Of a stretch of DNA of 64,000 nucleotides, positions 506 through 25,615 are shown piece after piece (position 1 is the first letter of the stretch; each line of letters opens with the position of its first letter). The DNA comes from Lama guanicoe (Eukaryota), in NCBI GenBank assembly GCA_013239625.1, contig MU053873.1:1750524-1814523 (forward strand), in the 5' to 3' direction. A program made the translations under genes and the position numbers. Under the pieces are notes generated by a model. That model saw nothing but the letters and a program-made list of their open reading frames with translations. It did no database searches and was not told the origin of the DNA.

Positions 506-804
506 TGCTGTATCTGAGTCAGTTTCTATGCACGTCCCACACTGCCTAGGTTTCTTTGCAGTACACAAAGCGGTCACGTGTCATTAATGAGCACATGCTC
601 CTGTCTGGAGTTTAGTCCTTAAAATACACTGTAGCCTCACCTTTGCCAGGAGTAGATCCACAGAAAGCACACAGCAGAGCTGCCCCGCACACAGGCTTCT
701 CCAGCCCTGAGTACAGGCACCTGTCGGTGGTGGTGATTTCGGGAGCTGAATGCTTCTGATCTTCTGTGTTGGAGGACAGAAATTCTACAGTGTGTAAGTG
801 TGTA

Positions 805-1036
805 GACAAACAACATAGGTTTGAACTACGCAGGTCCGCGTGCACACAGCTGTTTCCAGTAGTAAATCCTACGGTGCTATACAATCCACGGTGGGCTGAA
901 TCTGCAGATGTAGAACCACAGATATGGAGGAACCGTAAGGAATTGTGTATATGGAGGGCAGATAGTAAGTTATATGCAGGTTCAATTGTGCAAAGTTTCG
1001 GCACCCTAACCCCCACCTTGTTCAAGGGTCAACTAT
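805..1036. mobile_element. Tigger2/MER8-like TcMar MITE
   Basis: Ends in ttgttcaagggtcaact (Tigger2-type TIR). The degenerate opposite end is aacaacataggtttgaact. Confidence 0.75.
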
Positions 1037-1039
1037 ACT

Positions 1040-3455
1040 TCAGAAAGGAAAGCAGTCCTACATATGAAAGTCTGAGATGCATGAAGAAATAATGAACGAA
1101 GAACTAGGTAAATGTGAAAAAAAAAACAAAACAAATACTGATTGTATAAAAAGAGTAATGTCTCACTTGGGTAGCAATAAAAAATTAAAATATTGGACAA
1201 TAATATGTAAAATAAAAGTTAAAGTGTTACTTGTTTTTGGGAAGAGAGAGTAGACTTTTAGAGTAAGTTAAATATGCATAATCACACACACACAAAATTG
1301 GAAGAGGATTATACCAAACTAGTTAATGGAAGAGAAATAAATTTTTAAAAACTTACTTGATCTAAAATAGGAAAAGGAGGGAACAACAAAAAACAATTTA
1401 AAAGGAGAACAAAAATAAGATGAAATAAAATAATCAGTAATCATTATAAATGTAAGTGAACTAAACTTAATTGAAAAGGAGACTGACAGACGATAGCAAC
1501 ATGCCACATGCTCTTTGAAAACTATACGCTGTTTGAAAAGAAAAAACTCAACTGCAAAAGCGTAAGGGCCCCGAATGACTGACAGTAAAAGGATTAGCGA
1601 AATAGACAGTAAAAGGCACTAATAAAAGCAAAGAAGATCCATTTTCTAATGTTAAAAAACTTAGCAGAAAGGCAAAATTCTAAATGTGTATGCAGCTAAC
1701 AATATAGTTTCAAAATTCATAAAGTAAAAACTGGTAGAACTGCAAATTTGGAGAACTACACTGTCATCACTGGAGGTTTTATCCTTTACCCTCAATAACT
1801 GATAGATGAAGCAGACAGAAATCTAGAAAGCATGTGGTAGGTTAACACAATTCAGCCAACAGGCTTGTGAAATGCAAAGAAGCGGGTCTTTGAGAGTGAA
1901 TGTATGTCTTTACAAGCACACAGAGAATATTTTATGAAAACAGACCATGTACAGGCCACGTGGCAAGTCTAGCAAATACTGAGGAATCAATATCATTGCC
2001 ACCAACCTAATAAGAACACGGTGCATTTCAGTTAGGTACCAACAAGAAGACAATACTGGAAAAGCTGCCAATAACTTAAATATTTTAAAATGCACTAAAC
2101 AGCATATGAACCATGGAGGAACTTGTAATGGACGTGAAAAAATATTATGTATCTAAACTGATAGACGCCTTCGGTGCCACCTTGGGAGTTTCTGGGATTT
2201 ACTTTTATTAATGACACAGGTGTTTCTTATTTGTTCTATTCAAGACCAGAAGTCTGTACAATAGACTACAGTCTCATTTTTAGCCAGTAAAATATATGCT
2301 TATTTTTATTTCTGCTTATATGTTACTTCAGGAAATACATAAATTATAATAGCTTAAGAATAAAATTAATTTTAAAATCCATAAAAATCAGTGGGGTGTA
2401 GCTAATGTGGCATATTAAAGAAAAAATTATAGCCCTAAATGTTTATATTCAAGGTTAATTCCAAATATGTAACTGTATAAGCTATAAGAAATGAGGTAGA
2501 ATGCTGCCCTGAACTAGTGGTACTGGCGTGTTAGGAAAGAATGACACCACTGAGCTAGATGACTTGATCCAAAAAGTTAGCAAAAGAATAACAAATGCAG
2601 AGAGAAAAGGGAGGGAGTGAGAACAGTCAGAAATTAACAAAAATAGACAACACAGCAGATCAAGAAGGGTAAAGCTGGCCAAAAAGACAAAATACACTAA
2701 TTAATGGGAAGGCTAATTGTGTGTGTGTGTGAGTGACAGAGAGAGAGACAGAAAAACAGAAAAGGAAGGAAAAGTGGGTACAGCTAAAGATGCAGCAAAA
2801 ATTACTAAGAAAATACTATGAACACTTTTAGGCTGATGTATGTCAAAATGCAAAATAACAACTAATATGTTTTCAGCATACATACGTAGTTGAGGTATCT
2901 GGAAATGCAGGGGATGGTGGACCTCTGATGCAGGACAGTGGTGCCACCGTTGGGGAGGGAAGCAATGGAATTAGAATCAGGAGCGGTAAGCAAGTGACTT
3001 CAACTGCAGAGCACTACAGCATACAGCTACACACACGAACTATCTCACATGGAATTTAAGAAAAGAGTGAAAAGTGTTATTAGCAAACTATATGACAGTA
3101 ATTTAGATTATATGAACTTTTAGGAAAAAATATTAAAAGTTTCGGTGCAAGAAGGAAAAGAAAACTTAAAGAAACCAGAGCCCATAAAATTAAAACAGTA
3201 ATCGTAACTCATTCCCCTTTATCCAACTCTCCAAAAAATACAGGCCCAGATGGTTTTACGTATATTTCACCAAACTTTCAGGGACCAGTGAGATACTCTA
3301 TATTTTCAAATTGTTTCAGAAAATGTAAAAATTTAAAAAGATGCTAAAAATCATCCCGTGATGGTATTCTTAATTTGAAGATCAATAGACAGTATAAGGA
3401 TAAGCCCATTTTATTTATGAATCTAGACGTAAAAACCCTAAATAAAACATTTGGC
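1040..3455 (+). mobile_element. Ancient, fragmented L1 (ORF1 end / ORF2 endonuclease-RT region)
   Basis: A-rich, with L1-like motifs (ctaaatgtgtatgca..aac, caggcccagatggtttta, caaattgtttcagaaaa). Confidence 0.7.
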
Positions 3456-6127
3456 CATTAAACGCCTGTGTTTTAAGACTCGGAAAACAGAGGCTGAAAG
3501 TAGACCTATGTGTTAGTCACTGGAGCTTAACTCTTTGCTGATGAACACGCACATGGTATTTATTCCTAAGGGCCAGACCTCTGGTCCTAAGTGGCATCTA
3601 TAAACACATTCACTTTGGAAAATCAGTAAGCGTTAAACTACGGAGGAAGTTACCTCCCGGAGAACTGGAGTGCGGAAGCCTACGGTTTACGGTGTAATTA
3701 GACAAGTATGTCTATTACACTCCTGTTATAAGAACAATGAAATATGTATATCAATATAAGGGAAATTCCAAGCAGTTCTACCATTTCTTAAGAAACAATT
3801 TAAGAACTATACCCTGCTATTACTGTTAAAGTAGAAATTGACTTCAGTATAATAACCTACAGGGTAGATCTAAGGACGCAAGGTTAGCACAATGCTGTGC
3901 GAGGACTAACGAGCACAACCGTGTGGGCCCTATCACCTTAGGAAATAAAATTCGTGCTCTCTTCTAATGCTCAAGGATCTGCACATCCAACTGTGGAATA
4001 CGTGCTTTGTTAGGTGCTTCCCTGGAAGGAGAGACTGGCCTTAATGGATGTGTTGGGGACCTTGACTGATAGCTGATACACAAGAGACGGTACCACCAGG
4101 ACTGCTCTTAGCTCCTCTGGTACTTTATTTATAGTACTTTGTTTTGTTGTTTTTAACCTCAGGAATTCTGGACAGGGACCGCAGCTTGGTACCTTTCTCA
4201 ATTTAAAGACTTTTTTCAACTTTCCCAATGAGTATGCATGCTTACAGCCTCTAATAATACTAAATAGTGGCAAACAGCAGGGAACTGACAGACTAATGCT
4301 GCATCCACTCCAGCAAATGAGGCCTAAACATCTGGATCCAAATACAATAAAGGACATGTTGGCATTAAGGAAACATTTTGCCTCCCAAATGAATTCGCAT
4401 TCCATCTCAAGATATTTATTAAATTTGTAGCAACTGTGCATTTGGGCTTCAGGGGATGATAATGTTCTTAAATATATAAATATTCTCTATATATTTTATT
4501 AAATTAAAAGTTGCTTTTTGAAGTGTAGCCATTTTCTTTTTGAACCAAAAATGCAAATGCAAAATGAAACTGGTATGTAATCAGGAAAAAAGAGGCAGTT
4601 CTTATCATTTCAAAAGTCATTCATTCTACAAATATCTGTTGAGGGTTTGTTGTGATAAATAGAATGTAGCCAATAAAAAATAAACAAGCAGAAAGTTAAA
4701 ATAGATGTTTTAAAAGTCCATTAAATACAGTTTGTGTTTTAATTAGATGCCGTTCTCTCCTGTATTACAAACAATCCAAACAGCCTGATGAATGAAAATG
4801 CCCATCACTCTGCCTCCCCACACACTGTCCCTGCTGAGAACTGCCTCAGCTCAGCTTGAGGGATGAATCGGCTCGAGGCAGAGGTGCTCTATGTGGAAGG
4901 ACTCCACTCTCCCGGCTGCAGCTGACACAGCGCCACCAATCCTGTGGGAGGTCAGAGCCTTAGGAAAAGCCCCTATAATCAGATTCTTTCTCATGAATTC
5001 AATCCAGGTCTAGATCACGTCTCTGCAGCTGACGCCAAAGCCAAAAGGTAATGATGTAAACTGAGGTCAGTGGGGCCAGCATGGCCACGTGCAGAGTTGA
5101 GATGTGTGAAAACTGAGTGAGCAGAGGAAGCCAGCAGTGGAGAAAGGAGAAAAGAACAAATGCAGAGGTACCTTGAGAGAGAAAGTCCCTGAAGTAGCCA
5201 AGTTCCAGGCTACTCTCAACATTCAGTTACTTCCCACTTGGGTTAATTTAAATGGGAATTTTTTCCCCTTTCGATTTAATGGCCTTAATTGTGGATGTTT
5301 GAACATACAGTATATAAAAGCAAGTCAGAAGTGGAGCCGGAAGAAAGGCCATGGGGCCAGGCAAACTAAAGACAGAAATGGCAGCAAAGGAATGAGACGG
5401 TGGAATGGAGAACACAGTGAGGGGCCTCTATGACCCTGGACACTTGGATGTAAGTAAATACTAGAACCAATCAGAAGAGAGGCTCATGTCCTTTCTAGTG
5501 GCTTATGTTCAGCCTACCCTCCAGGCACTGCGGGGGAGCAGCCTGGGCCCCTCCCCACAGCCCACATCTCCACTTCCCAGACCCCTGAAGGACAGCATGC
5601 CCATAATTTCCCCCCTCTCTCCTGCACTGTCAGATTCTTCCTCTCTGCTAATGAATCATTCCCCTCTGCACGTTCAGGTGCCGTGATGGCTCCGACGTAG
5701 CCCCATGTCCCCATTCCGTGGATATGCCATTTCTCTGCTGCTGTTTCCAGAACTAAACGACAGCTCTGTACTCAGTGTCACCACCTCCACTCTCCCTCTT
5801 CTCTCCTGAACCACTCCCTCAAATCAGATTGTGCCCCCAACACAAACTCCAGAGCTACATCCAGCTTCTGAAACCTGGTGGTCAATTCTTAGTTCTCTGT
5901 AATCCAGGGCTAAGGACACAGCATCACTTCTGAGGTGGTCTTGAAATAAAAGTATAACCTGCACTTAATTAATAAGCTTTCAAATATATAACTTTCAATT
6001 TACTGTAAATACAGAGATTATTAGAATGAGTTACACAGCACCAGGAGAAAGCAATGAGGTAAATCCAGAAGGCAGTCCCCCCATCCCTCCACACAGTGCT
6101 TTTCGTACAGCTTTCTGCAGGGATGGT

Positions 6128-6232
6128 CTGTGCTGTCCAGTACATCAGCCACTAGGCACATGTGGCCACTGGGCAGCCAAAATACGGTTAGTGTGACTGA
6201 GGATACAAAATTTTATTCTGATTTATTTGTAT
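6128..6232. mobile_element. MER3/MER33-like hAT-Charlie fragment
   Basis: gctgtccagtac..agccactaggcacatgtggccactg..gtgtgactgagga motif. Confidence 0.6.
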
Positions 6233-6329
6233 GTATAGTAGACTGGTCTATTCTCTTAAGCCAACATTAAAAGGAAAAATAAGAGGCCAGACACTCTTCA
6301 AGAATAAAGAATTTTAAGTAAATGACATC

Positions 6330-9150
6330 ACAACCAAATGTAAATACAATTGCATTTCTATATACTAGAAAAAACACTGGAAAACAGAATTAAGACCAAT
6401 TCTGTTTACCATTACATCAATAAATATAAAATAATTGATTAAAACTGATTTCTACAGTTAAAATGGGTACAGTTCATAATATGTAGATTATACTTCAATT
6501 AAGTTAATGGAAAAAATCCTCAGGGATAAATTTAACAAAAGGCAAGTAAGATCTCTACATTGAAAATGACAAAATACTGAGAAAAATTAAAGAAGACATA
6601 AATTGAGAGAGACACTATGTTCACGGATAGAATACTCAGTATTGTTAAGATGTTAATTCTCCTCAAACTTACCTATAGAGTCAACATAACTGTAACGAAA
6701 AAGTCTTAGCAGACTTTTTATTAGTAACTGACAAGTTAAAGTTAAAATTTATCTGGAAATACAAAGAATCTAGAAGAGTCAAAATAAATTTGAAAAATGA
6801 AGTTGCCTTCAAAATTTACTTTAAAGCGACAGTAAATAAGACTATGTGGTTTTGGCAAATAAACATGCAGATTGGTGGGCAGAGCAGAGTCCAGAAATAC
6901 ATGCAGAGAAAAGAGCCCAGACATACAGGGTCAACCAATTTTCAATAAAGGGTACCAAGGTAATTCAACAGGGGAAAGGACGGTATTCTCACTATGTCGT
7001 ACTAACGCAACCACGTATCATTTAGAAAAATCAAACCTCAATGATTACCTCAAATCATCCTACAAAACTCAAGATGGATCATAAACCCAGACATAAAAGC
7101 TAAAATTAGAAAGCTTCATTCATAAGAAAACATCTCTTTGACCCTCAGTCAGGCAAAGACTTCTTAAGACACAAAAAGCACTAACCATAAAAGAAAAAGT
7201 TACTGATCAAAATTAAAACCTTCTGCTCTTTAAAAGATATCACAGCCTACAAGAAATTATTCATGATATTTTTTCATAAATTTACCTGAAAGAAGTGAAT
7301 TTATGTTTCTGGAATGAATATCTGTATTTATATCACCTGCAACTCAACGATAAAATAAAGGCGAAAGACTGAACAGAAATTTCACAATGGAAGATACACA
7401 AATGATCAACAAGCACAAGAAAATGTGCTCAGAATCATTAGTCACCTGGGAATGCAAATGAAAATCACAGTGAAAAAACACTTCCCACCTTTGGAATGAC
7501 TAAATTAGAGGCAGGCCACACCAAGTGCTGGTGAGTATACAGAACCACTAGGACTCTCACACCTTGTTGGGAGGAGTGTGAAATGATACAACCAACTTGG
7601 AAAACTGGCAGTTTCTCCGAAAACTTAATACACATCCACCCAATCCTATGTCTAAGTATTTGCCCATGAGAAACAAAAACAAATGCCCATAAAGAGACTC
7701 ATACAAGAAAGTCCCAGTTGTTTTATTCATAGAAGCCCCCAAATGGGAAAAGCTCAAATGGCTATCAGCAGGCGGACGGATAAAGGAATTATGGTACAGT
7801 CATACAATGGAATACCACACTACAATGCAAAGTAGTAAAGGAGGCAGCAGTAATAGAAACACTCTGAGCAAAAGAAGTCAAACACGGGGGGGAGGATGTA
7901 GCTCAAGTGGCAGAGCACATGCTTAGCACACACAAGGTCCTGGGTTCAATTCCCAGCATCTTCTCTAAAAATAAGTAAATAAGTAAACCTAACTGCCTCC
8001 CCCCTCCAAAAAAATAAATAAAATAAAATAAATTAAAAAAAGGAGTCAAACATAAAAGAGTTCATACTTCATGATCCCCTTTATGTAAAATCCTAGAATA
8101 GTCTTGGTCAAGAGCGATTGCCTCTGGGAGGAAAAGGGGATTAACCAGAAGGGACATGAGGGAACCTAACTAGGGTGATGGAACTGGTTCTGTATCTTGA
8201 CTGCAGTGTTGATTACATGAATAAATACATTTGTCAAAACTTATCAAATGGCACTCTTAAAATTTAAACATTTTACTGTGTGTAAATTTTATACAAAGCC
8301 TCAGAAGTTTTTTGGGGGGGGGTGTAGAAATTAACAAGTTGATTCTAAATTTTATCCGGAAATGCAAAGGGACCAAGAACATCCAAGGCAGTCTAGAAAA
8401 AGAACAAAGCTTGAGAAGTTCCATTGCCGGAAATTAAACTCAGTTATAAAGCTATAATAATTAAGACAGAGTGGGACTGGTGCACGGATAGACAAACAGA
8501 TGAACGAAACACAAGAGAAAGTCTAGAAATAGACCTACACACTTGATTTATGACAAAGACGACACTGTAGTGCAGTGGAGAGAGAACAGACTTTTCAATA
8601 AATGGAGCTGGTTTCTGTTAGATATAATATTTTTCAAAAATGATCTTGACCTCTACCTACCATGAACAAAAATCAAGTTTTGGGAGATTTTATGTAAAAG
8701 GCAGAAAATCTAGGGAAAATATTTAGAAGAAAACACAAGAGATTATCTCAACAACCTTAAGGTAGGCAAATGTTTCTTAAACAAGATATAAAAAGTAGTT
8801 AACTGTTAAAAAGCAGTTTGATAAATGGGACTATCAACTACAGAATGAATACATTAATGGTGGTATATCATACAACTGAATACTCCATGGCAACCACATG
8901 TAACAACATGAATATTTCAAATAGAATGCTGAGCTAAGGAAGCCAGACAGTATACCATATGTTTCCACTTATATAAAGTTCAATAACTAGCAAAACAATT
9001 TTATGGTGTTAAGAGTTCAGATATTGTTCACTCTGTGGTGGAAGACTGGTACTGGCTTACCTGGATAGTTTCATTTGGTAAAAATACTTCACATTGTACA
9101 ATTACGACTTGTGTACTTTTCTGTGTGTCATACATCAATATGGATACAGT
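6330..9150 (+). mobile_element. Old L1M ORF2 3' part / 3'UTR fragments (several nested pieces)
   Basis: attgcatttctatatactag, ctcagtattgttaagatg and aatgcaaatgaaaatcacagtga are L1 ORF2 C-terminal motifs. Confidence 0.8.
7886..8040 (+). mobile_element. Camelid-type tRNA-derived SINE with target-site duplication
   Basis: A box (tagctcaagtgg), B box (gggttcaattccc), A-rich tail. TSD aaaagaagtcaaacac (7870-7885) / aaaaggagtcaaacat (8038-8053). Confidence 0.9.
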
Positions 9151-12100
9151 TAAAAAAAAATCATCAACCTAATTTTTCTCCCCTGTCTTCTTCCTTCTCA
9201 CATCTTCTACGTCTCTGAAAATGGCAACTACATCCAGTTGTTCAGGACAAAACCAGTGCAGCCACACTCAGCCTCCTCCTCTCTCTCATGTGCTACATGG
9301 TCCAGTGCAAACCTGTTGGCTCTCTCGTCTCTGTCGCCCGCTGACTGGCTCCCACCCCTCTTCCCTTCAGCCTGCTCTCCCTATGGCAGCCACAGCAACC
9401 ATTTTAAAACATACATCAGCTCACCTTATGTTTGCTCCTAAGCCTTCAAATTGGAATTATGTGCCATTTTATAATAAAGGTGCTCAATGGATGCTTTGAG
9501 AGGATCACAGCACTACTTCTGTGATATTCCTGCCAAAGATGCATAAACTGAATCTAATCAGGAGGAAACATCAGACAAATTCAAACTGAAAGATTTTCCA
9601 CAACACGACTGGCTTGTGAACTGTATAAACATTTGGAAAGTAATTTGTTATCTATGAAAGATATTTATACTCTATGACTTAGCAATTTAACTCTGAAATA
9701 CATATTCTAGAGAAACTCATACATGTGTCCGAGAAGACACCTACTGGAATGTCCATCACTTATTATTACAGCAAAATGTTAAAATCAACTTAAATACTCA
9801 GTAAGAAGAGAATTTATGAAATGTACTGCAATGAAAAAGAATGAACTAGAGCTATACAAACATGGATAAATCTCATCAACATAGTGAATAAAAGTAATCT
9901 ATTACAGATATGCATGGGAATTATAACAACAGATTTACAGGGCAGGTATGGAGGAGACAATATACTCTGGGAGGAACACATCAGCAGTTTCAATTGTATT
10001 TATAATGTTTTATTTCCTAGGATAGATGGTAGATACATGGGTTTTCACTGTTATTCTATTTGCCTTTAAGTGTGAAACTTTTATATCAAAAAAGTTGCCA
10101 ATCTAAGTTGAAAATTTTTCATCCAAAGTGGTTAAAATAAAAACATTGCCGAAATAGTTTTATTTTAGCCCACCACTGGTTTTCTGAAAAATGTACTCAT
10201 AAGGAAGTTCTGTGCAGGTAATTGCAAATGACAATTTCCAAACTTTTAGCTGATTCTGACAGTGTAGCAAGGCCATCAACTTCACGTGGAATGTGACCTA
10301 GCTGATAATTAGTCTAGATCTGAGTAACTGATAAAGCTCTAATACATTCTGAAAGGCTGGGTGGGATGGCTTTTATCAACCAGCACTGACTTGTCATAAT
10401 TATATAGGCTATCTGCCACATCACTGTAGACAGCTATAGATGGCCATCAACAAAAATTAGCTTACCAACAAGAACTGTATTTTTGATCAGGAGTCACACA
10501 CACACGTTGGCTGAGTGTACAGGATGAGACAACAGAGCACTATGGAGTTTAAAGTTTTCTCTCAGAGGTTACAGGGTAGAGTTGTTTCTTTCCTAACCTT
10601 TGGGCAAAAACAACTGCTTGAGAAGTGAAAAATTCCTTTAGGCTGACTGTGTAGGCTAAAGAATGGTTACTTTGATATTATCTTTTTAAAAAAAATCAGT
10701 AAAAGTGGTTATGTGTACAGGGTTCTAAAGATGCCAAAGATGTCACAGCTAATGGAGTAGATGCCAGATTGCTTTCTGAGATCATCCCAATTCCCAGCCC
10801 ACTTTCCCCTATTCCCACACAGATCCTGACACATACAGAACTGCATATATGTGACTTTTCAAACTTTTAGAAATCACAGAAGAATTCTTAGATTTCTACA
10901 GAAGGAAATGTTTTTGATACATCTTTCTCACCACAAAAAAAAAAACTGGCATTTAGCAGATTCTTTTTGAAGAATAAGTTGCAAACAATGGCTTTTTTCT
11001 TTGAAAATCTGTAATCAAAGAATTCTTTTGAAAGAAAACCCACATGCAATGAGATTTGCATAGTGCTTTCCATAAATCATGAAAATCCTGTTTTTCTATG
11101 TATGTCAACTTGGATATTCTTGTTACAATATGCATTGAGAAATGCATATATATGTATTTTTCAACTTCCAAAATGATTTTGAGAAGCTCTAAATAAAAAC
11201 ATAGAATAAAATCCATAAAAACAAAAATAAGAGTCAAGTAATGAGGAGGGCAGAGGAGGAAAAGTAAGTGAATTACATACACTAGAGGGTTTTATTGTGG
11301 TTTGTGATCATTCACACAGCGTCCTCCCCGGGGCTCCTCTAAGTAGGGATGGTACGGAACAGCAAGCACAGCACAGCACTCTTTGAGTCTACACTAGCGC
11401 CAAGTGGCATCCAATCTCTGTGCTCAGAGACCTGGCCTGTGGCCCACACCCTGCTCCTTCTTGGGACTTCCACCAGCTGCCCAGGCATCAGGGCATGATC
11501 AGGGGCCCCCTCCACACAAAGGGCTAGAGCTGTTAATGTTGCTGCTACCTGTTATCATCAGGATCTTTTTTTTAATGACTAAGAAGGCTTTGAGATGACT
11601 TCCAGAAGATATATCTGGGGAGTCCCTGAATCCTTGAGACCACAGACTGGTTGCTAAACCACTGAGAGGGAGTCTCACCATGGCCAAAGCCTGCTGGTCC
11701 CAGCAGGGCACTAAGCACTGGACATCTGTCATGAGCTCGAGGATCAAAAGGTTACTGAACATTTCCTACTTACTACTTTCTGGATTTTCTGTTCTGGCTT
11801 TTCCCTCTCTCCCTTGCTGTGCTCTAAACTCCAGGCAGAGGATTTTATGTTTATTGTCGAATGAACTGATAAAGGGAAATGGTGGAACTGAGAGGGCTTT
11901 CTGTTACCATGACTCATAAACTTTAATGGTTTATTTCCCTGAAAGACATCCAATTACCACAGCTCCAAAATCTTGCTAATCATGTACTAAAAAGTTGTTT
12001 TAAAGGGCAAAATGCCAGTGAATAGTATCTTCACCTCTCATTTTCTGAAAATTAATCTTTAAATAATATCATGAAAGTAAACATTTTAATTCATCAGGAT

Positions 12101-12314
12101 TAGAATATGGTTAATAGATAAAGATTTCCCAACTTTTAATTTTCCAAATAAGCAAGCTTAGAATTCCCCTCTCAGAGCACTACCATCATAGAATACTTTG
12201 CCAATAGAAACATTCAGCATGACTTAAGGAAATATCCAGGATATTCTAAATTTCTTAACTTGAGAAACACTAATCGATTCACTGGCCCAGCCTCCATAGC
12301 TCATATGAAGTATC

Positions 12315-12638
12315 AAATTGGCTGCACCATTTTACATTCCAACCAAGTATATGAGGTTTCCATTTCTCCACGTTCTTCACCACCACTTGCTATTACCTGT
12401 CATTTTGAGTACAGCCAACCTAGTGGGTATGAAGTAGCTTCATGGTTTTGATTTGCATTTCCCTGATGGCTGATGATACGGAACATCTTTCCACATGCTT
12501 ATTGGCATTAGTATATCCCTTGGAGAAATGTTTGAGATCCTCTGCCCACTTTTCATTTGGGTTGTCTTTTTATTACTGAGCTGTAGGAATATTGTATATA
12601 TTCTAGATAGAAACCTGTTTTCAATTATGATTTACAAA
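12315..12638 (-). mobile_element. L1M fragment, antisense
   Basis: ggctgcaccattttacattcc...tggttttgatttgcatttccctgatg motif. Confidence 0.85.
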
Positions 12639-12640
12639 TA

Positions 12641-13060
12641 TAAGCACACCTTGGAGATATTGCAGGTTCAGTTCCAGACCCTCAAAGTAAAGCAAACATT
12701 GCAAGAGTCATGCTAATTTTTGCTTCCCTAGCACATAAAAAGTTACGTTTACAGTATATTGTAGTCTACTAAGTGTGCAATAGCATTATTTCTTTAAAAA
12801 AAGCTCATACCTTAATTTAAAATACTTAAGTGCTAAAAAATGTAACCATACAAGCTTTCAGAGGATCGTTATCTTTTTGCAACAGTAACATCAAAGATCA
12901 CTGATCGCAGATCACCATAACAAATATAATGTGGGAAAAGTTTGAAATATTGCAAGAATTATCAAAACGTGACATAGAGACATAATGTGAGTAAATGCTG
13001 TTGGAAAAAAGGTGCTAACAGACTTGATGCAGGGTTGTCACAATCTTCAGTTAAAAAAAA
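12641..13060 (-). mobile_element. Internally deleted Tigger1-type DNA transposon
   Basis: ggagatattgcaggttcagttccagacc...aagtgtgcaatagcattat joined to acatcaaagatcactgatcgcagatcaccataac...cagggttgtcacaa (both Tigger1 ends). Confidence 0.85.
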
Positions 13061-13749
13061 TTTATTGAATGTTATTTTGAGTATTTTAATCCTTCAAATG
13101 TAAAGCCCAAAATTCTAGTATTCAAAGTGTATGGTATGCTATGTTTTGCTTAGGAAGAAAATCCAAGTTTTCTTGATGTCAATTTATACAACTAAGACAG
13201 TTTTAATATAAAGAAAATAAGCTTCTAGCTAGTACTGAGTTTTGTTTTAGAGGGTTTTGTTGTTGTCCAACTAGATAGGATGACTTTAAAGTTCATTTGG
13301 AAATACAAAAGGCAGAAAAACTCTGAGAGGAAAAAATACATATACATATACATTTAAAATCAAACAAATAACAGGACAAGTCACACAAAATAGTAAAAGC
13401 CTCAATAAGAGTGGTTCTAACATGTAACAGGCAGACCAATGAAACAAAACTGAAAGAAAAGAAATAGACTTAATATTTGAAAAGTTAATATGTGGTAAAG
13501 GTGGTCTCTCAAATCACTAGGAGGAAAACAGACTATTCAATAAATTGTGAGGACAACTCACTATTTAAAAAAATAAGAACACTATACACCAGGATATATT
13601 CTTATGAATCAAGGAGTCAAATGTCAAAAATGAAAAATGACACTAGAAGGAAATACAGCAAATTTCTTTAGTAACTTTAGTCTGGGAAAGGCCTTAACTG
13701 AACTTGAAATCCACAAACTGACTCCCCCCCCCCCAAAAAAAAAGGGAGA

Positions 13750-14580
13750 GCGATCCTGTGTTCATGGACTGGAAGAATTAATAATATTAAATGTCCATAC
13801 TACCTAAAGCCATCTATAGATTCAATTCAATCCCATCAAGATCTCAATGGCATTTTTTCAAGTGGAAAAAAAAATCCTAAAATTTGTATGGAACTTCCAA
13901 AAGACCCCAAATAGTCAAAGCAACCCTGAGAAAGAAGAACAAAGCAGGAGGCATCACACTTCCTGACTTCAAGCTATATTATAAAGCTATAATAACCAAA
14001 ACAGTACAGTACTGGCATAAAAATAGATACACAGGCCAATGGGACAGAATCAAGAGTCCAGAAAGAAACCCATACATATACAGTCACACAGAGAAAGACA
14101 AATATTGTATGATCTCACTTACATATGGTATCTAAAAAACCAAACCAAAACAAAAACCCCAAACAAAAAGGCAAACTCATAGAAAAAGAGATCAGATTTG
14201 TGGTTACCAGAGGTGAAGGGTAGTGGGTAGGAGTACTGGATGAAGATGGATGAAGGAAAAGTTTCAAACTTTGTAAGATAAATAAGTACTGGGGATGTAA
14301 TGTACAACACGATGATATAATTAACATTGCCGTCTGGTATATTTGAAAGTTGCTAAAAGAATAGATCCTAAACTTTTTATCACAAGGAAGAAAAAACATT
14401 TTTTCTTTCTTTTTTGGGGGGGGTATCTATATATCATGATGGATGTTAACTAAACTTACTGTGGTCGTCATTTTGCAATATGTGTAAGTCATCAGGCTTT
14501 ACACCTTAAACTTACACAGTGCTATATGTCGATTATAACTCAATAAAACTAAAAGAAAAAAATAAAACAAAGTAAACTAG
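13750..14580 (+). mobile_element. L1MA9-like element (ORF2 fragment fused to 3'UTR), nested in older L1
   Basis: ORF 13884-14135 translates as L1 ORF2 ([19 protein letters not shown]...QYWHKNR). 3'UTR motifs and A tail present. Confidence 0.9.
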
Positions 14581-17227
14581 AAATAAGTTAATCATCCCAT
14601 TTCCTCTCAAAAAAAAAAAAAGAGCATGTGGTCTCATTAAAAAAAAAATCCACAAACTATGAGAGGAATTTAACATCATAAAAATAAAAAACTTCTATAA
14701 TGGGGGGGGGGAATCCACCAAAAGCAAAGTACAACTGACAAAGTGGGGAAAATATTTGTAACTCATATTACAAAGGATTTAATCTTTCTAATATGTAAGA
14801 CCAGCAACTTAATAGAAAACCAACCAAAGGATAAAACTAAAATAAGATCATTTTGATAAAAATCTCAAAGCTTGGTAACAAATTTTGTTGGCAAGGCTGA
14901 GAGGAAATAACATTCTCATACATCAGTGGTAAGAGTATAAATTGGCACAATCCCTACTGATGGCAATTTGTTAATACTCTTCAAAAATAAACATATATCT
15001 TTCATTTTACCAAGCAATTCTCATTCTGAGAATTTATCCTACAAATATATTGCACATATATGAAATGGTTTTGCCTTGCAGCATTGTTCTTAACAGTGAA
15101 AGACAGGTTAAAAAAATAACTTAATGTCCACCAGAAGGAGAGTAGTTACACAATAAATTATGTACCCAATGGGATATATTCTAAACATGTTAATAAAAAA
15201 AACTTTTTAAAAACAAAACCCCCCAAACCCCATAAAGAGGCTGCCCTTTTTGTACTGATATGTAAAGCTCTCTGAGCTACCTTATGTGAAGCAAATAAAG
15301 TATGCAACAGTGTAAATGAAGCATAAATCTGTATGAAAGGAGGAAAATTAAATTCTATTTGCATGTATACGCATTAAACAAAAGCTCCATGGCATGCACA
15401 AGCAACTAGCAACAGCAGTGTCTTATCTTGTGTGATGAGGCGGGACCTAAGCAGCAAAAATGTAGACTCCTGGAAACGGAACCACTGGGTCAATGGATAA
15501 ATGCATGTATGCATGCGTTAGGTATTACCAAACTCCCCCTCATAAAGGCTGTACCATTCTGCACTACACCCAGTTTGGCACGAGAGTGCCTGTTTCTCCT
15601 CAGCATCTCCAATAGTAAAATTTTTAGATTTTTTTTGCTAAGCTGATAAGAAATGATAACATAGTGTGGTTTTTGATTGTTTTTAAATTAAGGTTTGTTG
15701 TGGTATAATTTACATGAAATAACTTTCACTTTTTTTGGGTTACAGTCATAAACGTATATTCATGTAACACCACCACAATCAACTGAAGACTAAGAATTCC
15801 AATGGAAAAAATTGTAACACGTGAAACTATAAAAACATGTCATACTAGTCCACTGTTCATACACACAGCAGCAACAATTTTATTATGTACCCATTTTGAA
15901 AAGACAGAACATGTTTCCATTGGCTATGATTGTAGTATTATCAACAGTAAAAGATAATATAGGGTTTTTTTTTTCCTTTCTTTTCTTTTCCCCCATCCTG
16001 TTTTGCCTTTAATTTTATAGATGTGCCATCAAGCTACTCTGATATTTCAGTACAGGCTCAATGATTACTTACTGATTGCTTCTTTAACCACTGTAATTTA
16101 ATGACAAATCTTTTAAAATTTGAGTGTTTTAAAATAGTATATATTCTGGAATTTCTCCCCTGCCATTGCTTAGCCTTATGAGAAGTGAATTAAGAAAAAT
16201 CAGAGAAACAGAAAACTTTATTATTAATGGTAAATAAAGGAGAACCCAAAAGTCACTGTACTACTTGGGTTTAACATATATTCCCTCGAGCATCACGCCT
16301 TCTTCTAATAGATAATATGTGAGAAGACTCTACACAAGTGAAAACAGAAAATGCAATTACATTTTATTGCAAGAAATTTGGAAAACGTATTTTTAACAAA
16401 GTTAGCTATCCAAAAGTGTTACCTTAGGCTGTCTCTTAATAGCTCCTTTTCACAAGTGTGAAATTTAATGAAGGCAACAGCATTTACAAGCAAGACCAAA
16501 ATGGTATCTTAATTACTAGCTGCATTTTCTTAGGCAACAAGAGATTAAATGGAAAGAGAAATTAGTTTTACAAATGGCATCATACATCTTTATGTTACAT
16601 CCCTCTCCATCAAGTCACAGATGGTTATGTGTCTTGAACTTCCTCATATCATAGCAATTTTCTTTTCCTTGGGCATACCCTAATCCATCACTCCTCTAAA
16701 TCATATATTATTTTTGAATCATTTACAAAGACTGAAGCTGTTTATCAGAGTGATTTAACATTCACTGGCCACATGAAATGGGCTTTTCCCTTACTGGTCT
16801 CTACAAGAACATGAAATTTAGAACTTTCTGAAACTACTCACCCTAAAAGTTTGCAGTGTACTCATTACAGACGTTTTGGAGTAATACTTTGACCTGAACT
16901 GATAAACTCATCTAACTAACTCTAATAAAGGGTTCCTGGTTCTGTTACCACTGTCAAATCTAACAACCAAACCCTGGGGTAAAGCTATGGCTAATGTTAC
17001 TTTTGCTTGTCATATAATTCATGTCCAAAAATAACGACTCGCAAGGGCTCATATGGGACTGCTCTCTTCAGATGAGCGTCTATAAAACTCATGCATTAAA
17101 AAGAACCCAGACATTTTGCTTTGAATCATGGCCGAGTAACTACTATTGGAATAACAACTCCATGCAGAACAACTATAAATTTTGGATTAAACAAAACAAA
17201 ACAAAATAAAAACTCCCTATAAGCACT

Positions 17228-17460
17228 AGAATTTGAACTGTGTGGGTCCACTCATAAGCAGATTTTTTCCAACAGCAAATACTACATTACTCCACGATCC
17301 CCTGGTTGATTGAGTCTGTGGAAGCAGAACTATAAATACAGAGGAACTGCACAGTCAAAGGAACCATGTGGTTGAAGGGCTAACTATGAGTTACACATGG
17401 ATTTTTAACTGTGCAGAGGACTGGTGCCCCTAATGCCTGTATTGTTCAAGGATCAACTGT
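17228..17460. mobile_element. Tigger2/MER8-like MITE
   Basis: tttgaactgtgtgggtccactcat...ttgttcaaggatcaactg-TA end. Confidence 0.75.
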
Positions 17461-17879
17461 ATTGTTAAAACATCACTTCTCCCCAGATTGATTAATTAAT
17501 CCAATCCCACTCACTCAGCAGGCTTGTTTTCATAGAAACTGGCAAGCTCTTCGCAAATTTTATATAGAAATTGATGCCCAAAATAATTTTGGAAAAAAAC
17601 AAAGATGGAAGGTTGATTTCAAGACTTACTATAAAACTGTAATAATCAAAGATGTTATTTAATAAATATATAGAGAAGACAGAAACAACTGAATATGCAA
17701 CTATAAAAAAAAAGAATGTCAACCCTTACCTCACATCACAGACAAAATTTACCCGAAAGGGATGGAAGACCTACAGAAAACAGCTAAAATTAAAAACTTC
17801 AAAAAGAAAAAGTAAGAGACAAATCTTTGCAACTTTGGGGTAGGAAAAGGTTTCTTAGGACTCTAAAAGCATGAATTAG

Positions 17880-19405
17880 TACAAAAACAGACATGTGGAT
17901 CATTAGAACAGAACAAGAGAGCCCAGAAATAAACCCACAATCTTTTGGTCAATTAATCTTTGACAAAGGAGGCAAGAACATACAATAGAATAGAGAGAGT
18001 CTCTACAGCAAGTGGTGTTGGGATAATTGGACAGCTGCATGTAAATCAATGAAGTTAGAATAATCCCTCACACCATACACAAAAATAAACTCAAAATGGC
18101 TTAGCTTAGATGCATGTAAATCAATGAAGTTAGAATAATCCCTCACACCATACACAAAAATAAACTCAAAATGGCTTAGAGACTTAAACTCTTAGAAGAA
18201 AACATAGTCAAAACATTATCTGACATAAATCTTAGCAATGTTCTCCTAGGGCAGTCTACCCAGACAATAGAAATAAAAGCAAAAATAAACAAATGGGGCC
18301 AAATTAAACTTACAAGCTTTTGCAAAGAAAACCATAAACAAAACAAAAAGACAACCTATGGAATGGGAGAAAATATTTGCAAAAGATGAGACTGACAAGG
18401 GCTTAATTTCCAGAATATATAAACAGCTCATACAACTTAATAATAAACAAACAACCCAATCCAAAAATGGGAAGAAGATCTAAACAAGCAATTCTCCAAT
18501 GAAGACATACAAATGGCCAATACAAACATGAAAAAAATGCTCAACATCACTAATTATCAGAGAAATGCAAATCAAAACTACAATGAGAGGTTACCACCTC
18601 ATACCAGTAAGAATGGCGATCATTCAAAAGTCCACTAACAATAAATGCTGGAGAAGGTGTGGAGAAAAGGGAACCCTCCTACACTGCTGGTGGGAATGTA
18701 GTTTGGTGCAGCCGTTATGAAAATAGCATGGATATTTCTCAAAAAAACTAAAAACAGACTTACCATATGATCCAACAATCCCACTCCTGGGCATGTATTC
18801 AGAGGGGAACATAATTCAAAAAGATACGTGCACCCCAGTGTTCACAGCAGCACTATTTACAATAGCCAAGACATGGAAACAACCTAAAAGTCCATCAACA
18901 GACAACTGAATAGAGAAGATGTGGCACATATACACAATACACTGGAGTATTACTCAGCCATAAAAAAGAATGAAATAATGCCATTTACAACAACATGGAT
19001 GGACCTAGAGATTATCATATTAAGTGAAGTAAATCAGACAGAGAAAAGCAAATATGTATCACTTATACGTGGAATCTAAAAAATATTAAAAAAAATACAA
19101 ATTCTATTTACAAGCCAAAAACAGACTCACAAACACAGAAAAAAACCATAGTTACTAAAGGGGAAAGGGCAAAGAGGGATAAATTAGGAGTTGGAAATTA
19201 GCAGACACATACTACTCGACATAAAATCAACAAAGACCTACTGTAAAGCACAGGGAACTATATTCAATTTTTTGTAATAACATATAATGAAAAAGAATCT
19301 GAAATGAAAAAATATACATGTATATATATGTATAATTCAGTCACTTCACTAGACACCTGAAACTAACATTGTAAATCAAGTATACTTCAATAAATAATTT
19401 TTTAA
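17880..19405 (+). mobile_element. Younger lineage L1 (ORF2 C-terminus + 3'UTR), 5'-truncated, nested in older L1
   Basis: Well-preserved ORF2 3' motifs. Ends with cacctgaaactaacattgtaaatcaagtatacttcaataaa. Confidence 0.92.
18036..18179. repeat. 69-bp perfect tandem duplication inside L1
   Basis: 18036-18104 and 18111-18179 are identical and separated by cttaga. Confidence 0.95.
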
Positions 19406-19609
19406 AAATCACATAGAAAATAGAATGGTGGCTGCCAGGCGCCGCAGAGTTTGGGAATGGAGAGTTATTAATGAGTACAGAGTTTAACAAGATGAAAAGA
19501 GATATGGAGATCGATGTGTAACATTACGAAATTAAAAATTAAAAATGTTTAAGATGATAAACTACATGTATTTTACCACAATAAAAAAATTGAGGAAAAA
19601 ATTCCTTTG

Positions 19610-20900
19610 AAATCGATCACAGACCTAGATGTAAAAGGTAAAATTTTTAAACTTCTAGAAGAAAACATTATAAAATAAGATCTTTGTGACTTTGAGGTTG
19701 GCAAAGATTTCTTAGGAGGACACAAAAAGCATAAATCATAAAAGAAAAAATAACTTAGACTTACTCAGAATTTAAAATTTCTGCTCTTTGAAATATATAC
19801 TATTAAGAAAATGAAAAGGCAAGCTACCGAGAGAAACTACTCACAAGTGTATCTGAGAAAGGACTTACATCTAGAATATATAGAGAACAGTTATGACTCA
19901 ATATTAAAAAGAACCAGATTTAAAATGAGCAAAAGATTTAAACAGAAACTTCACAAAAGATGTACAATGACCAAGAAGCACATGAAACAGTGCTCATCAC
20001 CATGAGTCTTCAGGGGAATGCAAATTAAACGACAATGAGATTCTACAACACATCCACCAGAATGGCTGAAGTGTGTTGACGCGGATGTGGCGTAACTGGA
20101 CTATCATATATTGCTGGTAAGAATATAAAATGGCGCAACCACTTTGCAAATCTATTCGACAGTTTCTTGGAGAGTTACATATGTACCTCCCTTAAAATTC
20201 AAGAGAAATTTTCCCAAAAGAAGTAAAAACATATCAACAGAAAGACTTCTGCACAAATAGTCAAAGTAGGTTTATTTATAATGACCAAACACTAGGAAGA
20301 ACCCCAAAGTCCATCACCAAGTAAATGGATAAACAAAATCTGATATATCCACACAAAGGAACATCACTCAGCAATGAAAAGGACTAAACTACACACAACA
20401 ACATTCATGAATCTCAAAAGCATGCTGAGTGCAAGAAGCTAGAAACAAAAATGGTCATAACATAGTCATCCCTCAGTATCTAGGAAATAAGTTTCAGGAG
20501 TGGCTGCAAATACCAAAATCCTAGGATGCTCAAGTCCCACAGTCAGCCTTCCATATCTGAAGTTCCATATCTGTGCGTTCAACCAACCAAGGATTGTGCA
20601 GTACTGCACTACTGAAAGAAATCTATGTTTAAATGCAGATTAAACTTGTGTTGTTCAAGGGTCAATTGTGTATCACTCAATGATATGAAACTCAAGAAAA
20701 GGCAAGTCTAACTTACAGTCACAGAAAGTAGTTCTGTGCATGCCTGGGGTTGGGAATGGGGGAACTGACTGGAAAGGGGCACAAGGAAACCTTTTAGAGC
20801 AATGGAAATGTCATATATTTTGTTTGTGGTAAGGATTACGAGAAGTGTATAAATCTGACAAAACATCTCAAACTATACAATTAAAACAGGTGCATTTTAA
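19610..20900 (+). mobile_element. Old L1M 3' fragment interrupted by MER8
   Basis: aaacttctagaagaaaacat, ggcaaagatttcttag and aaatggataaacaaa motifs. Confidence 0.75.
20463..20669. mobile_element. MER8-like TcMar-Tigger MITE
   Basis: agtcatccctcagtatc...ataccaaaatcc..ggatgctcaagtccc...ttgttcaagggtcaattg. Confidence 0.8.
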
Positions 20901-21065
20901 AAAGGACACACTATATAGCACAGGGAACTATATACAGTGCCTTGTAATAAACTATAATGGAAAAGAAACTGAAAAAAATTTGTGTAACTGAATCACTTCA
21001 CTGTACACCTGAAACTAACACAACCTTGTAAATCAACTATACTTCAATTAAAAAAAAGAAAAAAA
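20900..21065 (+). mobile_element. Short 5'-truncated L1 3' end (same family as 17880-19405)
   Basis: agcacagggaactata...ctgtacacctgaaactaacacaaccttgtaaatcaactatacttcaatt followed by poly(A). Confidence 0.85.
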
Positions 21066-21323
21066 TGGGTGCATTTTACTGTATGTCAACTATAGCTCAG
21101 TGAAGTTGATTAACATCTTCTCCACATTAGAAGACATAAGCAAGATTTCTCCTTTATAAAATGGGGATCATAACAGTACCTACTTTATATGAACTGTGAT
21201 GAGTAAGTGGGCTGGGGTTAACATTAGGTCATGTGAAACACTTAGGGCCTGATGTATAATAAAAACTCAGTGGCATAAAATTTTCTTTAAGATAAATATC
21301 TTAGCACAAGAGTCACTATAAAC

Positions 21324-21537
21324 CACTGGTTCTCAAACCAGGGGCAATTCTGCCCCCCAGGGGACAAAGGGCAATGTCTGTAGACATTTTGGATTGCCAT
21401 GACTGGAGGGGTGCTATAGGCATCTAATGGATAGAGGTCAGGGATGTGGCTGAACATTCTGCAATACATGGAACAGTCTCCACAACAAAGAATTATCTGA
21501 CTCAAAATGTCAATACTGCAGAGGCTGAGCAACCCTG
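21324..21537. mobile_element. MER20 (hAT-Charlie), full length
   Basis: cactggttctcaaaccaggggcaattctgcccccc...gaggctgagcaaccctg, with an 8-bp TSD ctataaac/ctgtaaac. Confidence 0.9.
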
Positions 21538-23929
21538 CTGTAAACAAAGTGACACAACAATCCACATATAGAAAGGAAATATGTAAAATGCACATAATTA
21601 ACACAGAATTTGAAGTCCAAAATATATATATATATATATATATCTCTTCTACAAGTCAAAAAGAAAAGTCAAAACCAATAGGAAAATGAGCAAAGAATAA
21701 GAACATGACCAGTAAACATGAAAAGATCCTTACCCTGCAGAAAAAATGCAAAGTGAGTATGTGAGATAGCATTTTAAAACCAATAAAGTGGCAAAAATAA
21801 AAAATTCTGACAATATCAAATGTTGGTGACAATACAGAATAGAAATCTATACCATACACTGCAGGTGAAAGGGTAAATAATAGCCACATATCAATACATA
21901 TATGAATGTACGTACATATATATGCATTCCTATTCATGCATTATGATGAATAGTGATTAATGATAGTTACTCCGGGGGATGAAGGGAAAGGGGAGGAATT
22001 TAATTATATTACCTTAATTTAAATTACTGTTCTGTTCTCTGAAAGCTGTGTTTTAAAACGATTCCCATTCACTGATCACCTAATATATATCAGATACTCT
22101 GTAAGATATACTTCATACCTTTAATTCTGCACAACAAATCTATGTTGTAGCTATCATAGCTCCTGAGATTGAACAATTTACTCAAGGTACATAGCTAGCT
22201 AGTGGCAGAGACAGAATTCAGGCCAAGGGCTTTCTACTGCAAGGCCAGTCCTCTCTCTCCCACAGCAGTAAAATATTATGACCTATGCCCTAGTATTTGA
22301 CAATATCAAAGCATTCTTGTAAATACTTCTGGCTTTTTATAGAAATATCTCAATCAAGATAATTCTGGAATTAAGAGAAGATAAAGAAAATAGGATGGCA
22401 AAAGCAGAGTAAGCAAGGCAAACAAAAGCTATAGAAGCCTCCCCTAAAAAATGTACATAGACATGAAATTAAATATGTAATTTCAATGGTTCACAAATTC
22501 CCTGGGAGCACTCACCAAAAGGTATTTGGATTCCAGGTTAAAAATGTCTCTTTAAGAAGAAGAAAAAAAAAAAAGCAGCCACATTCAATTATTTCAATTT
22601 AATTCTTCAAATGTTTGAAGGACCATTCAAATTTCTTTGACCAGAGTTGTACTTTATCAACTACTGCATAAGTGTTCCAAACACTGTTCATGTTCAGAAA
22701 CTTTTTGGTTTGCCTCAGTAAAATCTACCATCATTCTTACTATAAAGAGCTCTTTGTTCCAGAACTGTATACAAGAGAAGTAATGAGACTGGTAGTTATG
22801 TGAGGCTTGTAGAACTGGTTAAACTCAATCGGACATTTTGTATGTAAAGGTTACCTTTGTTGAAGGAGGAAAGTTAGAACGAGGAACAGGCTTAAAAAAG
22901 AGGTTGGATCTTTTCTACATCCAGAATCAATTACTAATAAGTTATATTCCATTACATGTCCATATGTGCAAAAACCCACAAGATTCAACATCTTTAGCTT
23001 TAAAACAAGAAAATGAGACTATCCATTAGCTTATGGGGGGGTAACCATTAGCTTATTTTTTTCACATGTAATAGTTTTTTTCTTCAAATGTCCTTTCTCA
23101 TTTTGGGGTGACAGTTCATGTCTTTCCTACTCTAGTCTTCATTCCCTCATTTGAGAATGAGAATATTCCCTTATTCTGCCATTTTTATCTCTTAAGCAGA
23201 TGTAGTATACAAGTATTTAATTTAGTTATGCAGATTTCATGTTTTCTATCAACCTAGCTAATTCTGAATTACTATATTTTCTTTCCTTCAATAAATGCAC
23301 CTAAACTGATTACTTTCTTAACCTTTCTTAAACCATATCCCTGTGGTTTTCATTTGAGTGTTTTACTATGAATCTTTAGATGGGAGACAATGTCCATACT
23401 GTATAACTGGTTCAGAGTTACACTCCACCCAGTACACTGTCTCCTCACATATTTTACAAACTTATGTTACTATGAGCAGCAACTGTGCTATGCAGAGAAT
23501 GGAATTAGTGAACACTTGTGGGAAGACTTCAAAAGTTACCAGAAATGCTCTGCAACATCCTAATTTTTCTTAATGATTAATAAGCCTTGTCAACCACAAA
23601 TTGACCCACGTTTTTAAAGCTATTTATATTTTCAGCATGTGTAACACCAGGGGACAGACTAAAACTTAAGACGACTACTTCCAGGTTTGGCAGTTAATAC
23701 TACATCCTTGGACTTTAACATCTCCTAACTCTAATATACAGGGGTACAGTATTCAAATCTGTAGACTGTCTATTCCTATCTTTAAGTATAATCTAGATTT
23801 TTGACCATAACCTCCTTCTACCCATAACTGAGACAAACTATTTGTCCTAAAGATTGTCTATATGTCTCAAGTTTTAATTTATTTTTACCTAGAAAAGGTG
23901 CACTGGAAAGACTAGATTTTGAAGTTTTT

Positions 23930-24140
23930 AAAACCTGGATTTGAAACCTTGTTGTTTCACAAGCTAGCTGAGTAACTTTTGCACAAGTAACTTAACTTGG
24001 CTCTCTGAACATTCTTTTCCTTTCTTAAGCACGCTAAAATACCTATCTCTTAAGGTTGTCTTAAGGGTGAAATGAGACAAAACGTCTTCATTACCTAACA
24101 CAGTACTTGGCATGTAACCGATGCCCAATCAATAGGAGCT
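23930..24140 (+). mobile_element. MIR-like SINE remnant
   Basis: acctggatttgaa...agctgagtaactttt.cacaagtaacttaac..ctctctgaac...cctaacacagtacttggcatgta. Confidence 0.65.
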
Positions 24141-25527
24141 ATTTCCAGTTTCTCAGCTCCCTGAAAGTTAAGAGCATGTGTTTCCTTGAACCCTCGCCAT
24201 CACGGTAACTAGCAGAGTGCTTCACACATTACAGAAACTCAGTGAATCCCAGGAACTGCCTTAGGAGGAAGTCTCCAGCTTTTAGGTAAATATTTCACTA
24301 CTATTATTTATTATTTTTTTGAGGCAGTCCTAACTCCACTAGGTGTATTCCATATAGATTCATATGTGTTTTAATATTTTTATTCTTTTCACAACCTTTC
24401 AACAGCTTCTTATGGTTCTCAGGATATAATTCAAGCTCTTTACTAGGGCCTAGTGATCTATTTAGTCCCAGCTTGTTTTTTCTCTTCACTTAAGAGGTAC
24501 TAGCCACACCTGCCCTCTACCTGCTCCTCAACCACCACTCTGAGCCTATTTCAGCCTCGCGGTCTATTTCCCTCTAAGAGGAATGCCTCGCCCACTTTCA
24601 CAGGTGGGGCTATTTAAAGCTTGAGGCTCAAACGTGGCCTCCTGACAGCCCTGCCCTTGATTACCCTGCCTCTCCCACTACCATGTTATTTTATTCACGG
24701 AACATCACTTAACCACTCTGCCCAATTCTCCCTCATTTGTTTCCGAGTGAGGACAGGGACTGTGTCTATTTTGCTTCTAGGTGTGTCCCCTATGCTAAAA
24801 CTGTCTGGTAGAGAGGAAGCGAGTGACCTCGGGCGACAACGCCTCCACAGGTCCACCTTCTGGCCTCTGGGCTGGAGCCTGGGCCGTCGGGGGAGCCTCC
24901 CCTGGGACGCGCCACCCTAAGGGCAGACACCCCCCTCTCCCACCGGGGCTCGTCGGGAGTGTCGGCCGCCCCTCGCGTCGGGTCACGGACCCTGGGGGGA
25001 CTGGGCTCTCAGGCAGGGGAGGGTGTGGACACTGAGAACTCGTGTGGCCACGGCGGCTCGGGGCTTCGGCCTGGGCTTCTGGAACGTGCGCGCGAGCCGC
25101 CAAGCCCACCGACACCTCCGGCCTCGGCCGCCTGGACCCGTCTCAAGTTTTTAATATGGATTTCGGCAGTGAGGTGTCCGTCAGCAAGGCGGGCCCCCTC
25201 TCAAAAGCAGCGGGAGGAAGTCTAGTTCTAGTCACCAGAAAACGACTTCCAGGGAACCGACTGGAAAACTCACCACAGAGCGCAGGCTGCTCAGACGCCG
25301 CGAGACAACTTGACTGGAGGGAGGAGCCCGCGCAGGGCACGGGCGAGCGCGCGCCGAGTTCGCGCAGCCGCAGTGGCAGCCTCGCGCGTCCTGGGTGGGG
25401 CGCGCAACTGGGGGGAGCCAGCCTCTCTCGCGCGCTGACGCGACAGGCAGCGGCGGAAGGGTGTGGACGCGCAGGCGCCGCGGGGGCTCCGGGGGCAGGG
25501 AGGCGGGGCCGCGCAAGCGCCGTGAGA

Positions 25528-25572
25528 GGCGGTAGCAGCGGCGGCGGCGGCGGCGGCAGCGGTGTCGGCGGC
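25528..25572 (+). repeat. Imperfect (GGC)n repeat in the PITPNB 5'UTR
   Basis: ggcggtagcagcggcggcggcggcggcggcagcggtgtcggcggc directly upstream of the ATG. Confidence 0.85.
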
Positions 25573-25595
25573 ATCTGTGAAGGGGTTCCGGGAAG

Positions 25596-25615
25596 ATGGT
25601 GCTGATTAAAGAATT
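25596..25615 (+). CDS. PITPNB: PITPNB coding exon 1 (MVLIKE-F)
   Basis: GGAAG-ATG-G strong Kozak context inside the CpG island. ATG GTG CTG ATT AAA GAA TT is followed by a GTAAGT donor at 25616. Matches the PITP-beta N-terminus. Confidence 0.97.

Follow-up and report, generated by a model that had tools for sequence, protein, structure and literature searches.

TTC28-AS1 and PITPNB at the locus

The window analysed here is a stretch of 64,000 nucleotides (64 kb) of the Lama guanicoe genome (assembly GCA_013239625.1, contig MU053873.1, positions 1,750,524 to 1,814,523 of the forward strand), and all positions below are counted from its first letter. Head-to-head with PITPNB, the minus strand carries what is, judged by its sequence, the camelid copy of TTC28-AS1, a known mammalian long non-coding RNA (lncRNA) gene. 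An initial annotation had described a TTC28-AS1-like divergent gene upstream of PITPNB and had read a chain of minus-strand exon-like units within it as a possible unitary pseudogene. The first of these proposals is borne out by two full-length minus-strand Rfam matches, the first of them ending at the donor that had been proposed. For splice-site scores, here and below, a simple weight matrix of general splice-site frequencies was used.

25432-25274, minus: TTC28-AS1 conserved region 1 (RF02198), model positions 1-162 of 162, 89.3 bits against a gathering score of 70; likely first exon
25276-25268 (GT from 25273), minus: 5' splice site GTG/GTGAGT, score 9.7, percentile 0.995 (weight matrix)
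23161-23007, minus: TTC28-AS1 conserved region 2 (RF02199), model positions 1-156 of 156, 96.9 bits against a gathering score of 50

Both matches lie above the Rfam gathering score and have the strand and order correct for TTC28-AS1. Because both models matched at full length on the minus strand, the locus is regarded as the orthologue of the known lncRNA. The RF02198 match stops at 25274, one base ahead of the GT at 25273, and this coincidence of its 3' end with the donor supports the donor independently. The RF02199 region was absent from the initial list of exons. It ends 10 bases 5' of the proposed unit 22997-22855 and at its 3' end takes in the pyrimidine tract of the acceptor at 22997, so the exon of the known RNA at this place would differ from that unit. 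An origin of the RF02199 region as an L1 fragment was rejected (score 55.5 against a shuffle mean of 56.3). No further TTC28-AS1 Rfam families matched in the scanned ranges 1-4100 and 4600-64000, between which the candidate unit 4466-4246 lies. TTC28 itself presumably lies to the left; no TTC28 coding sequence and no antisense overlap with TTC28 were seen within the 64 kb. As a lncRNA gene the locus is already known, and the result is one of annotation: it places on the camelid sequence the likely first exon of TTC28-AS1 with its donor, conserved region 2 and one more conserved block.

The antisense gene and PITPNB probably have their promoter in common.

24781-26400, no strand assigned: CpG island, TATA-less, common to the antisense gene and PITPNB, with a GC skew that changes sign along it
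25596-25615, plus: PITPNB coding exon 1 (ATG at 25596, GT at 25616), from sequence and donor score

GC skew is -0.33/-0.20 at 24401-24800 and +0.29 at 25401-25600, and no TATA hexamer was found in 25001-25700. The RF02198 region begins 164 bases from the PITPNB ATG. On the minus strand four AATAAA sites (24695, 24384, 24312 and 23883) lie at most 1.6 kb from the antisense start. Other PITPNB exons were located at 30414-30444, near 33269, near 42967, at 44242-44316 and at 46012-46095; the identity of the gene rests on exon 44242-44316, which matches Pfam IP_trans and has PITP beta as its best PDB match (E 4e-13). In an ORF listing, which together with motif counts and one L1 stretch made up what was examined on the plus strand, two ATG frames cross the CpG island, of 149 codons (25156-25605, plus) and 143 codons (25143-25574, minus), probably as an effect of high GC.

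Candidate splice units

The units of the proposed chain are given below with their scores as acceptor/donor.

22997-22855, minus: candidate unit, 5.1/7.1, followed by a 90-nt GT-AG interval; no Pfam or PDB match
22764-22741, minus: candidate 24-nt unit, 6.4/4.1
16528-16423, minus: candidate unit, 4.9/6.2, followed by a 93-nt GT-AG interval to the 16329 acceptor; no Pfam or PDB match
11938-11774, minus: conserved element with exon-like borders (conservation against flank); candidate internal exon or DNA element
11188-10932, minus: candidate unit, 3.9/8.1; no protein match
10655-10598, minus: candidate unit with weak acceptor, 2.4/7.3, followed by an 87-nt GT-AG interval
10510-10466, minus: candidate unit, 5.9/7.4
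4466-4246, minus: candidate unit, -0.5/5.2; 8, 0 and 1 stops by frame, two frames nearly open; no Pfam match
784-641, minus: candidate unit, 3.3/11.6, a very strong donor pointing out of the window; no Pfam match

On the minus strand, all nine bounded units have the reported AG before and GT after them. The acceptor at 16329 is present, as is the GTG/GTGAGT donor with its GT at 25273, and the two peptides quoted in the initial annotation are found in their units. The ten proposed donors stand at percentile 0.92-0.999 of 1553 minus-strand GT sites, and the ten proposed acceptors at percentile 0.52-0.94 of 1519 minus-strand AG sites. High percentiles are expected here, because the sites were picked by eye. 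Some acceptors had been called weak; the 4466 acceptor is at chance level, and the proposed acceptors score -0.5 to 6.6 against 8.0-11.6 at four PITPNB acceptors (a fifth AG, at 33266, scores 4.7).

Minus-strand splice signals exceed chance only weakly. In a comparison of the strands restricted to islands judged non-repeat by eye, one cut-off gave 24 minus-strand against 13 plus-strand donors (one-sided p 0.049), and the other three gave p 0.09-0.17. The 24 donors are about as many as in the shuffled control, where dinucleotide shuffling of the minus strand left 23.0 on average, and acceptors numbered 67 on the minus and 60 on the plus strand of the islands. Over the whole region, the minus-strand splice excess goes together with the richness of this strand in T (skew +0.14 overall and +0.03 in islands). 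A GT-AG interval of 80-100 nt comes after 6 of the 24 minus donors and after 3 of the 12 plus donors, which is no per-donor excess of minimal introns, and the corresponding Poisson P of 0.003-0.13 depends on the background and is not robust. The splice-site excess is marginal and fades once picking by eye is allowed for, and motif density alone therefore does not establish the chain.

Further motifs were seen along the chain. A 96-nt GT-AG interval (12034-11939, minus, donor score 7.0) ends at the 11938 acceptor and hints at a further unit ending at 12035. Unused minus-strand donor motifs at 9424, 9060, 16841, 11678 and 22515 (scores 8.4-11.8) are as strong as most proposed donors. The donor of 784-641 points towards what we take to be the position of TTC28. 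Near the left end, plus-strand poly(A)-type hexamers at 377 and 477 could mark the 3' end of TTC28, and the antisense RNA could terminate at a minus-strand AATAAA (432) that follows the acceptor at 784. In RNA sequencing runs, 20 of 24 rows contained some of 3500-13000 and the RNA-labelled ones 0.20-0.23 of its words; these were not used as evidence.

Conservation of the element at 11938-11774

The units at 11938, 11188, 10655 and 10510 were searched in their best register with phmmer against 1.84 billion representatives. The intervals between these four clustered units (585, 276 and 87 nt) are all multiples of three, so that one genomic frame carries all four; the chance of this is 1 in 27, and it is not required of coding introns. 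The search returned 8 hits of 72-169 residues, colinear and unspliced across the proposed borders. None of 32 cluster members carries a protein name, and all come from Logan or ENA contigs. From these sequences we infer that the 8 hits are chance open reading frames (ORFs) on orthologous DNA of other mammals.

These ORFs serve as comparators. Inside 11938-11774, 198 of 238 residues (83%) were identical against 141 of 203 (69%) in the 3' flank, one frame-shifted row being left out (Fisher p about 0.001, from comparisons that are not independent); with that row included, the flank value is 166 of 255. The initial annotation had proposed exon-like units, and at least one is of this kind, for 11938-11774 is a conserved element with exon-like borders whose identity drops at the donor. 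From its sequence it would be the best candidate for an internal exon or a DNA element. Identity over the element was 84-87% in one frame and 75-85% in another, and since it is alike in two frames with exon-like limits, this points to nucleotide constraint and not codon constraint. A frame switch occurs inside the element in 4 of the 5 ORF clusters. The acceptor is compatible in all five; the donor G at 11773 is lost in two (Ser to Asn), and within a third cluster two members disagree at it. These events are not independent, because shared features suggest as few as three lineages among the five clusters. We found no signal of a conserved RNA fold in the element (z -0.41).

Among the other units, the single ORF cluster over 11061-10552 switches frame repeatedly in the 11188-10932 unit, of which it covers the 3' half. 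A single cluster extends over the 10656 acceptor AG, and its residues there are different; another cluster has Ala for Val at the 10931 donor.

Reading frames and searches for a parent protein

Protein-like frames had been reported for several units. Among them, 784-641 is without stops in any frame and 4466-4246 is open in one. The chain of nine units in register has 12, 18 and 18 stops by frame; the six 3' units, a sub-chain chosen after seeing the data, have 6, 10 and 13. Against dinucleotide shuffles the best frame reached P 0.027 (nine units) and 0.013 (six units). Stops were low over all three frames jointly (48 against 65.8 in shuffles), so the depletion is not frame-specific. Against length-matched real AG-GT pseudo-exons from four backgrounds, P was 0.049-0.138 for nine units and 0.010-0.023 for six, and best-of-two picking of the background units raised it to 0.41 and 0.10, respectively. 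The open-frame signal, although real, is a small one and is consistent with units having been picked by eye. In the proposed chain open stretches reach at most 121 codons and the longest ATG frame 81 codons; with no family match, the chain thus has no protein-coding frame in the sense used for divergent lncRNAs.

The initial annotation could not name a parent protein, and our searches named none either. Pfam gave no match for the units (best E 0.084 among 21 translations covering three frames) and, for 4601-25300 of the minus strand in all three frames (30 translations), a best E of 0.012, below the cut-off. A PDB search of the units returned no parent (best E 0.11), and the ESM Atlas none (0.80 and 0.79), its CS-domain rows lying under the lead threshold. 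Three word searches for a parent protein had 0 hits, one of them made with unit 4466-4246 in one frame and another covering only 273-2000 residues. The phmmer search of 1.84 billion proteins included no spliced or named parent among its 8 hits; as to its sensitivity, one detected ORF was only 35% identical. A PITPNB exon-1 pattern had 0 matches in metagenome contigs, and 0 of 484 and 0 of 33 candidates for orthologous DNA were confirmed in metagenome and genome scans. A serpin-like look of unit 16528-16423 and an RGS-like look were not confirmed by the PDB search.

Strand composition and repeats

In the islands the minus strand has G over C (z 3.7) and T over A (z 2.1). L1-like pieces at 18.4-18.7 kb and 19.9-20.1 kb have the orientation opposite to that of the one piece at 12.3-12.6 kb. 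A strand skew and a bias in L1 orientation are expected where the minus strand has long been transcribed, and the two skews fit long-standing minus-strand transcription. The T-over-A skew flips at the CpG island, from +0.14 on the minus strand (1000-24000) to +0.10 on the plus strand (26500-64000); on the left side the skew stems mostly from repeat blocks. An L1 ORF2-like stretch contains a 72-nt direct duplication (99% identical, spacing 75, at 18033-18179). Rfam tRNA matches at 7892-7964 (plus), 27367-27438 (plus) and 27902-27974 (minus) are most likely heads of tRNA-derived SINEs.

Transcription and origin of the antisense gene

We consider it fairly probable that the CpG-island promoter shared with PITPNB drives the camelid TTC28-AS1 copy, that the product is a spliced non-coding RNA, and that the gene arose from non-coding DNA and not from a lost coding gene. 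Polymerase would fire both ways from the island. U1 bound to the donor, some 160 bases from the start of the antisense RNA, may let the transcript pass the AATAAA sites at 24695-23883, along the lines of the U1/poly(A) model of promoter direction discussed in PMC3882496. The RNA could then elongate through 25 kb of repeat-rich DNA and be spliced to those AG/GT units that can be used. Of the proposed units only some would be real exons, 11938-11774 first among them, and any function would likely be local, through transcription beside PITPNB and towards the 3' end of TTC28.

Several points weigh against this reading. The internal units are candidate exons whose splicing is predicted from sequence, and the origin from non-coding DNA, probable as it is, is argued from absence. 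The element 11938-11774 is constrained relative to its flank. In their best register the six 3' units contain 6 stops over about 296 codons, a count below that of real background pseudo-exons, and the three GT-AG intervals of 87-93 nt resemble minimal introns of coding genes. Moreover, the full HMMER scan took in one of three frames of four of the nine units, and could have missed a fast-evolving parent.

The explanation that survives best after the preferred one, though we judge it unlikely, is that the antisense RNA is short or unstable, that the chain downstream of it is mostly chance AG/GT pairs, and that 11938-11774 is conserved as a DNA element such as an enhancer. It is favoured by the donor count, which equals that of the shuffles, by the loss of the 11773 donor in two of five clusters and its variation in a third, by the changed 10656 acceptor in the sole cluster covering it, and by the position of the four AATAAA sites close to the antisense start. 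Enhancers are credited with some lncRNA conservation in PMC5577775. All 8 phmmer hits run unspliced across the proposed borders, but they may stem from DNA contigs, in which case this says little. The conservation that drops at the donor, the acceptor compatible in five of five clusters and the strand skews extending over the whole interval argue against this explanation.

Somewhat more doubtful still is the lost gene of the initial annotation, a multi-exon coding gene sharing the PITPNB promoter that would have died before the placental radiation, TTC28-AS1 inheriting its promoter and some exons in the manner of XIST or JPX. The small number of stops that the six 3' units have in one register, the exon-bounded conservation of 11938-11774 and the three short GT-AG intervals speak for it. 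There is also a precedent of the same geometry, LOC102606465, which is divergent from DPH5 and derived from chicken LOC768855 (PMC5577775). Negative homology results are weak evidence in such a case, because the same survey reports sequence similarity above background in only about a fifth of its pairs and excludes antisense transcripts. The proposal of a unitary pseudogene is nevertheless unsupported. The best register found no spliced or named protein, word searches, Pfam, PDB and Atlas gave no parent, the stop depletion spans all three frames and fades with best-of-two picking, identity is no higher in any single frame, and orthologous DNA has frame switches and lost splice sites. If, as we doubt to the same degree, the promoter, the 11938-11774 exon and several short introns of such a gene survive in the lncRNA, TTC28-AS1 would be a fossil of the XIST type that has gone unrecognised. 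A further gene loss in mammals could then be named and the origin of TTC28-AS1 explained. Such a fossil would have escaped at least one published survey, since antisense transcripts were left out of it, and surveys of this kind would undercount such fossils.

A living, lineage-restricted gene for a small protein, for which the open stretches and the units open in all or one of their frames could be cited, is very improbable given 12-18 stops in every nine-unit register, no ATG frame above 81 codons, frame switches in four of five orthologous clusters and Atlas recognition values of 1078 and 1618, which fall short of the 2300 seen for known families.

Comparison with known systems

According to PMC5577775, coding-gene fossils make up 2-3% of annotated lncRNAs and as much as 5% of conserved ones. 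Its searched supplements contain no TTC28/PITPNB rows, nor any at the expected coordinate, which is no test because antisense transcripts were excluded there. The searched supplements of PMC5644071, PMC10195156 and PMC6158594 likewise contain no such rows, and the titles and abstract openings searched, mostly outside the subscription literature, give no link of TTC28-AS1 to a lost gene. The present locus differs from lncRNAs derived from lost genes (XIST from LNX3, JPX, LOC102606465/XLOC_000933; PMC5577775) in that no parent gene, no protein similarity and no frame-specific conservation were identified, and resembles them in being conserved, multi-exon-looking and divergent, with short conserved blocks.

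Human TTC28-AS1 is expressed and is reduced by PRMT5 inhibition, and its chromatin is bound by E2F1 in HCT116 cells, according to PMC9968330; among the matches listed, the literature treats it mostly as an expression marker. The camelid copy is like the TTC28-AS1 of Rfam in having both conserved regions at full length, on the minus strand, in order and head-to-head with PITPNB, and unlike it in that the internal exon chain is a candidate only.

Promoters of divergent lncRNA/mRNA pairs are described in PMC3882496 as having an antisense start near the coding start, a CpG island of more than 1 kb, no TATA box and an inverted GC skew. PITPNB differs from the coding partners described there, which are developmental regulators with long first exons, in that it is a lipid-transfer gene whose first coding exon is short. 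The close antisense start, the TATA-less CpG island of more than 1 kb and the inverted GC skew are all shared, and the promoter anatomy read from the sequence fits this divergent lncRNA class.

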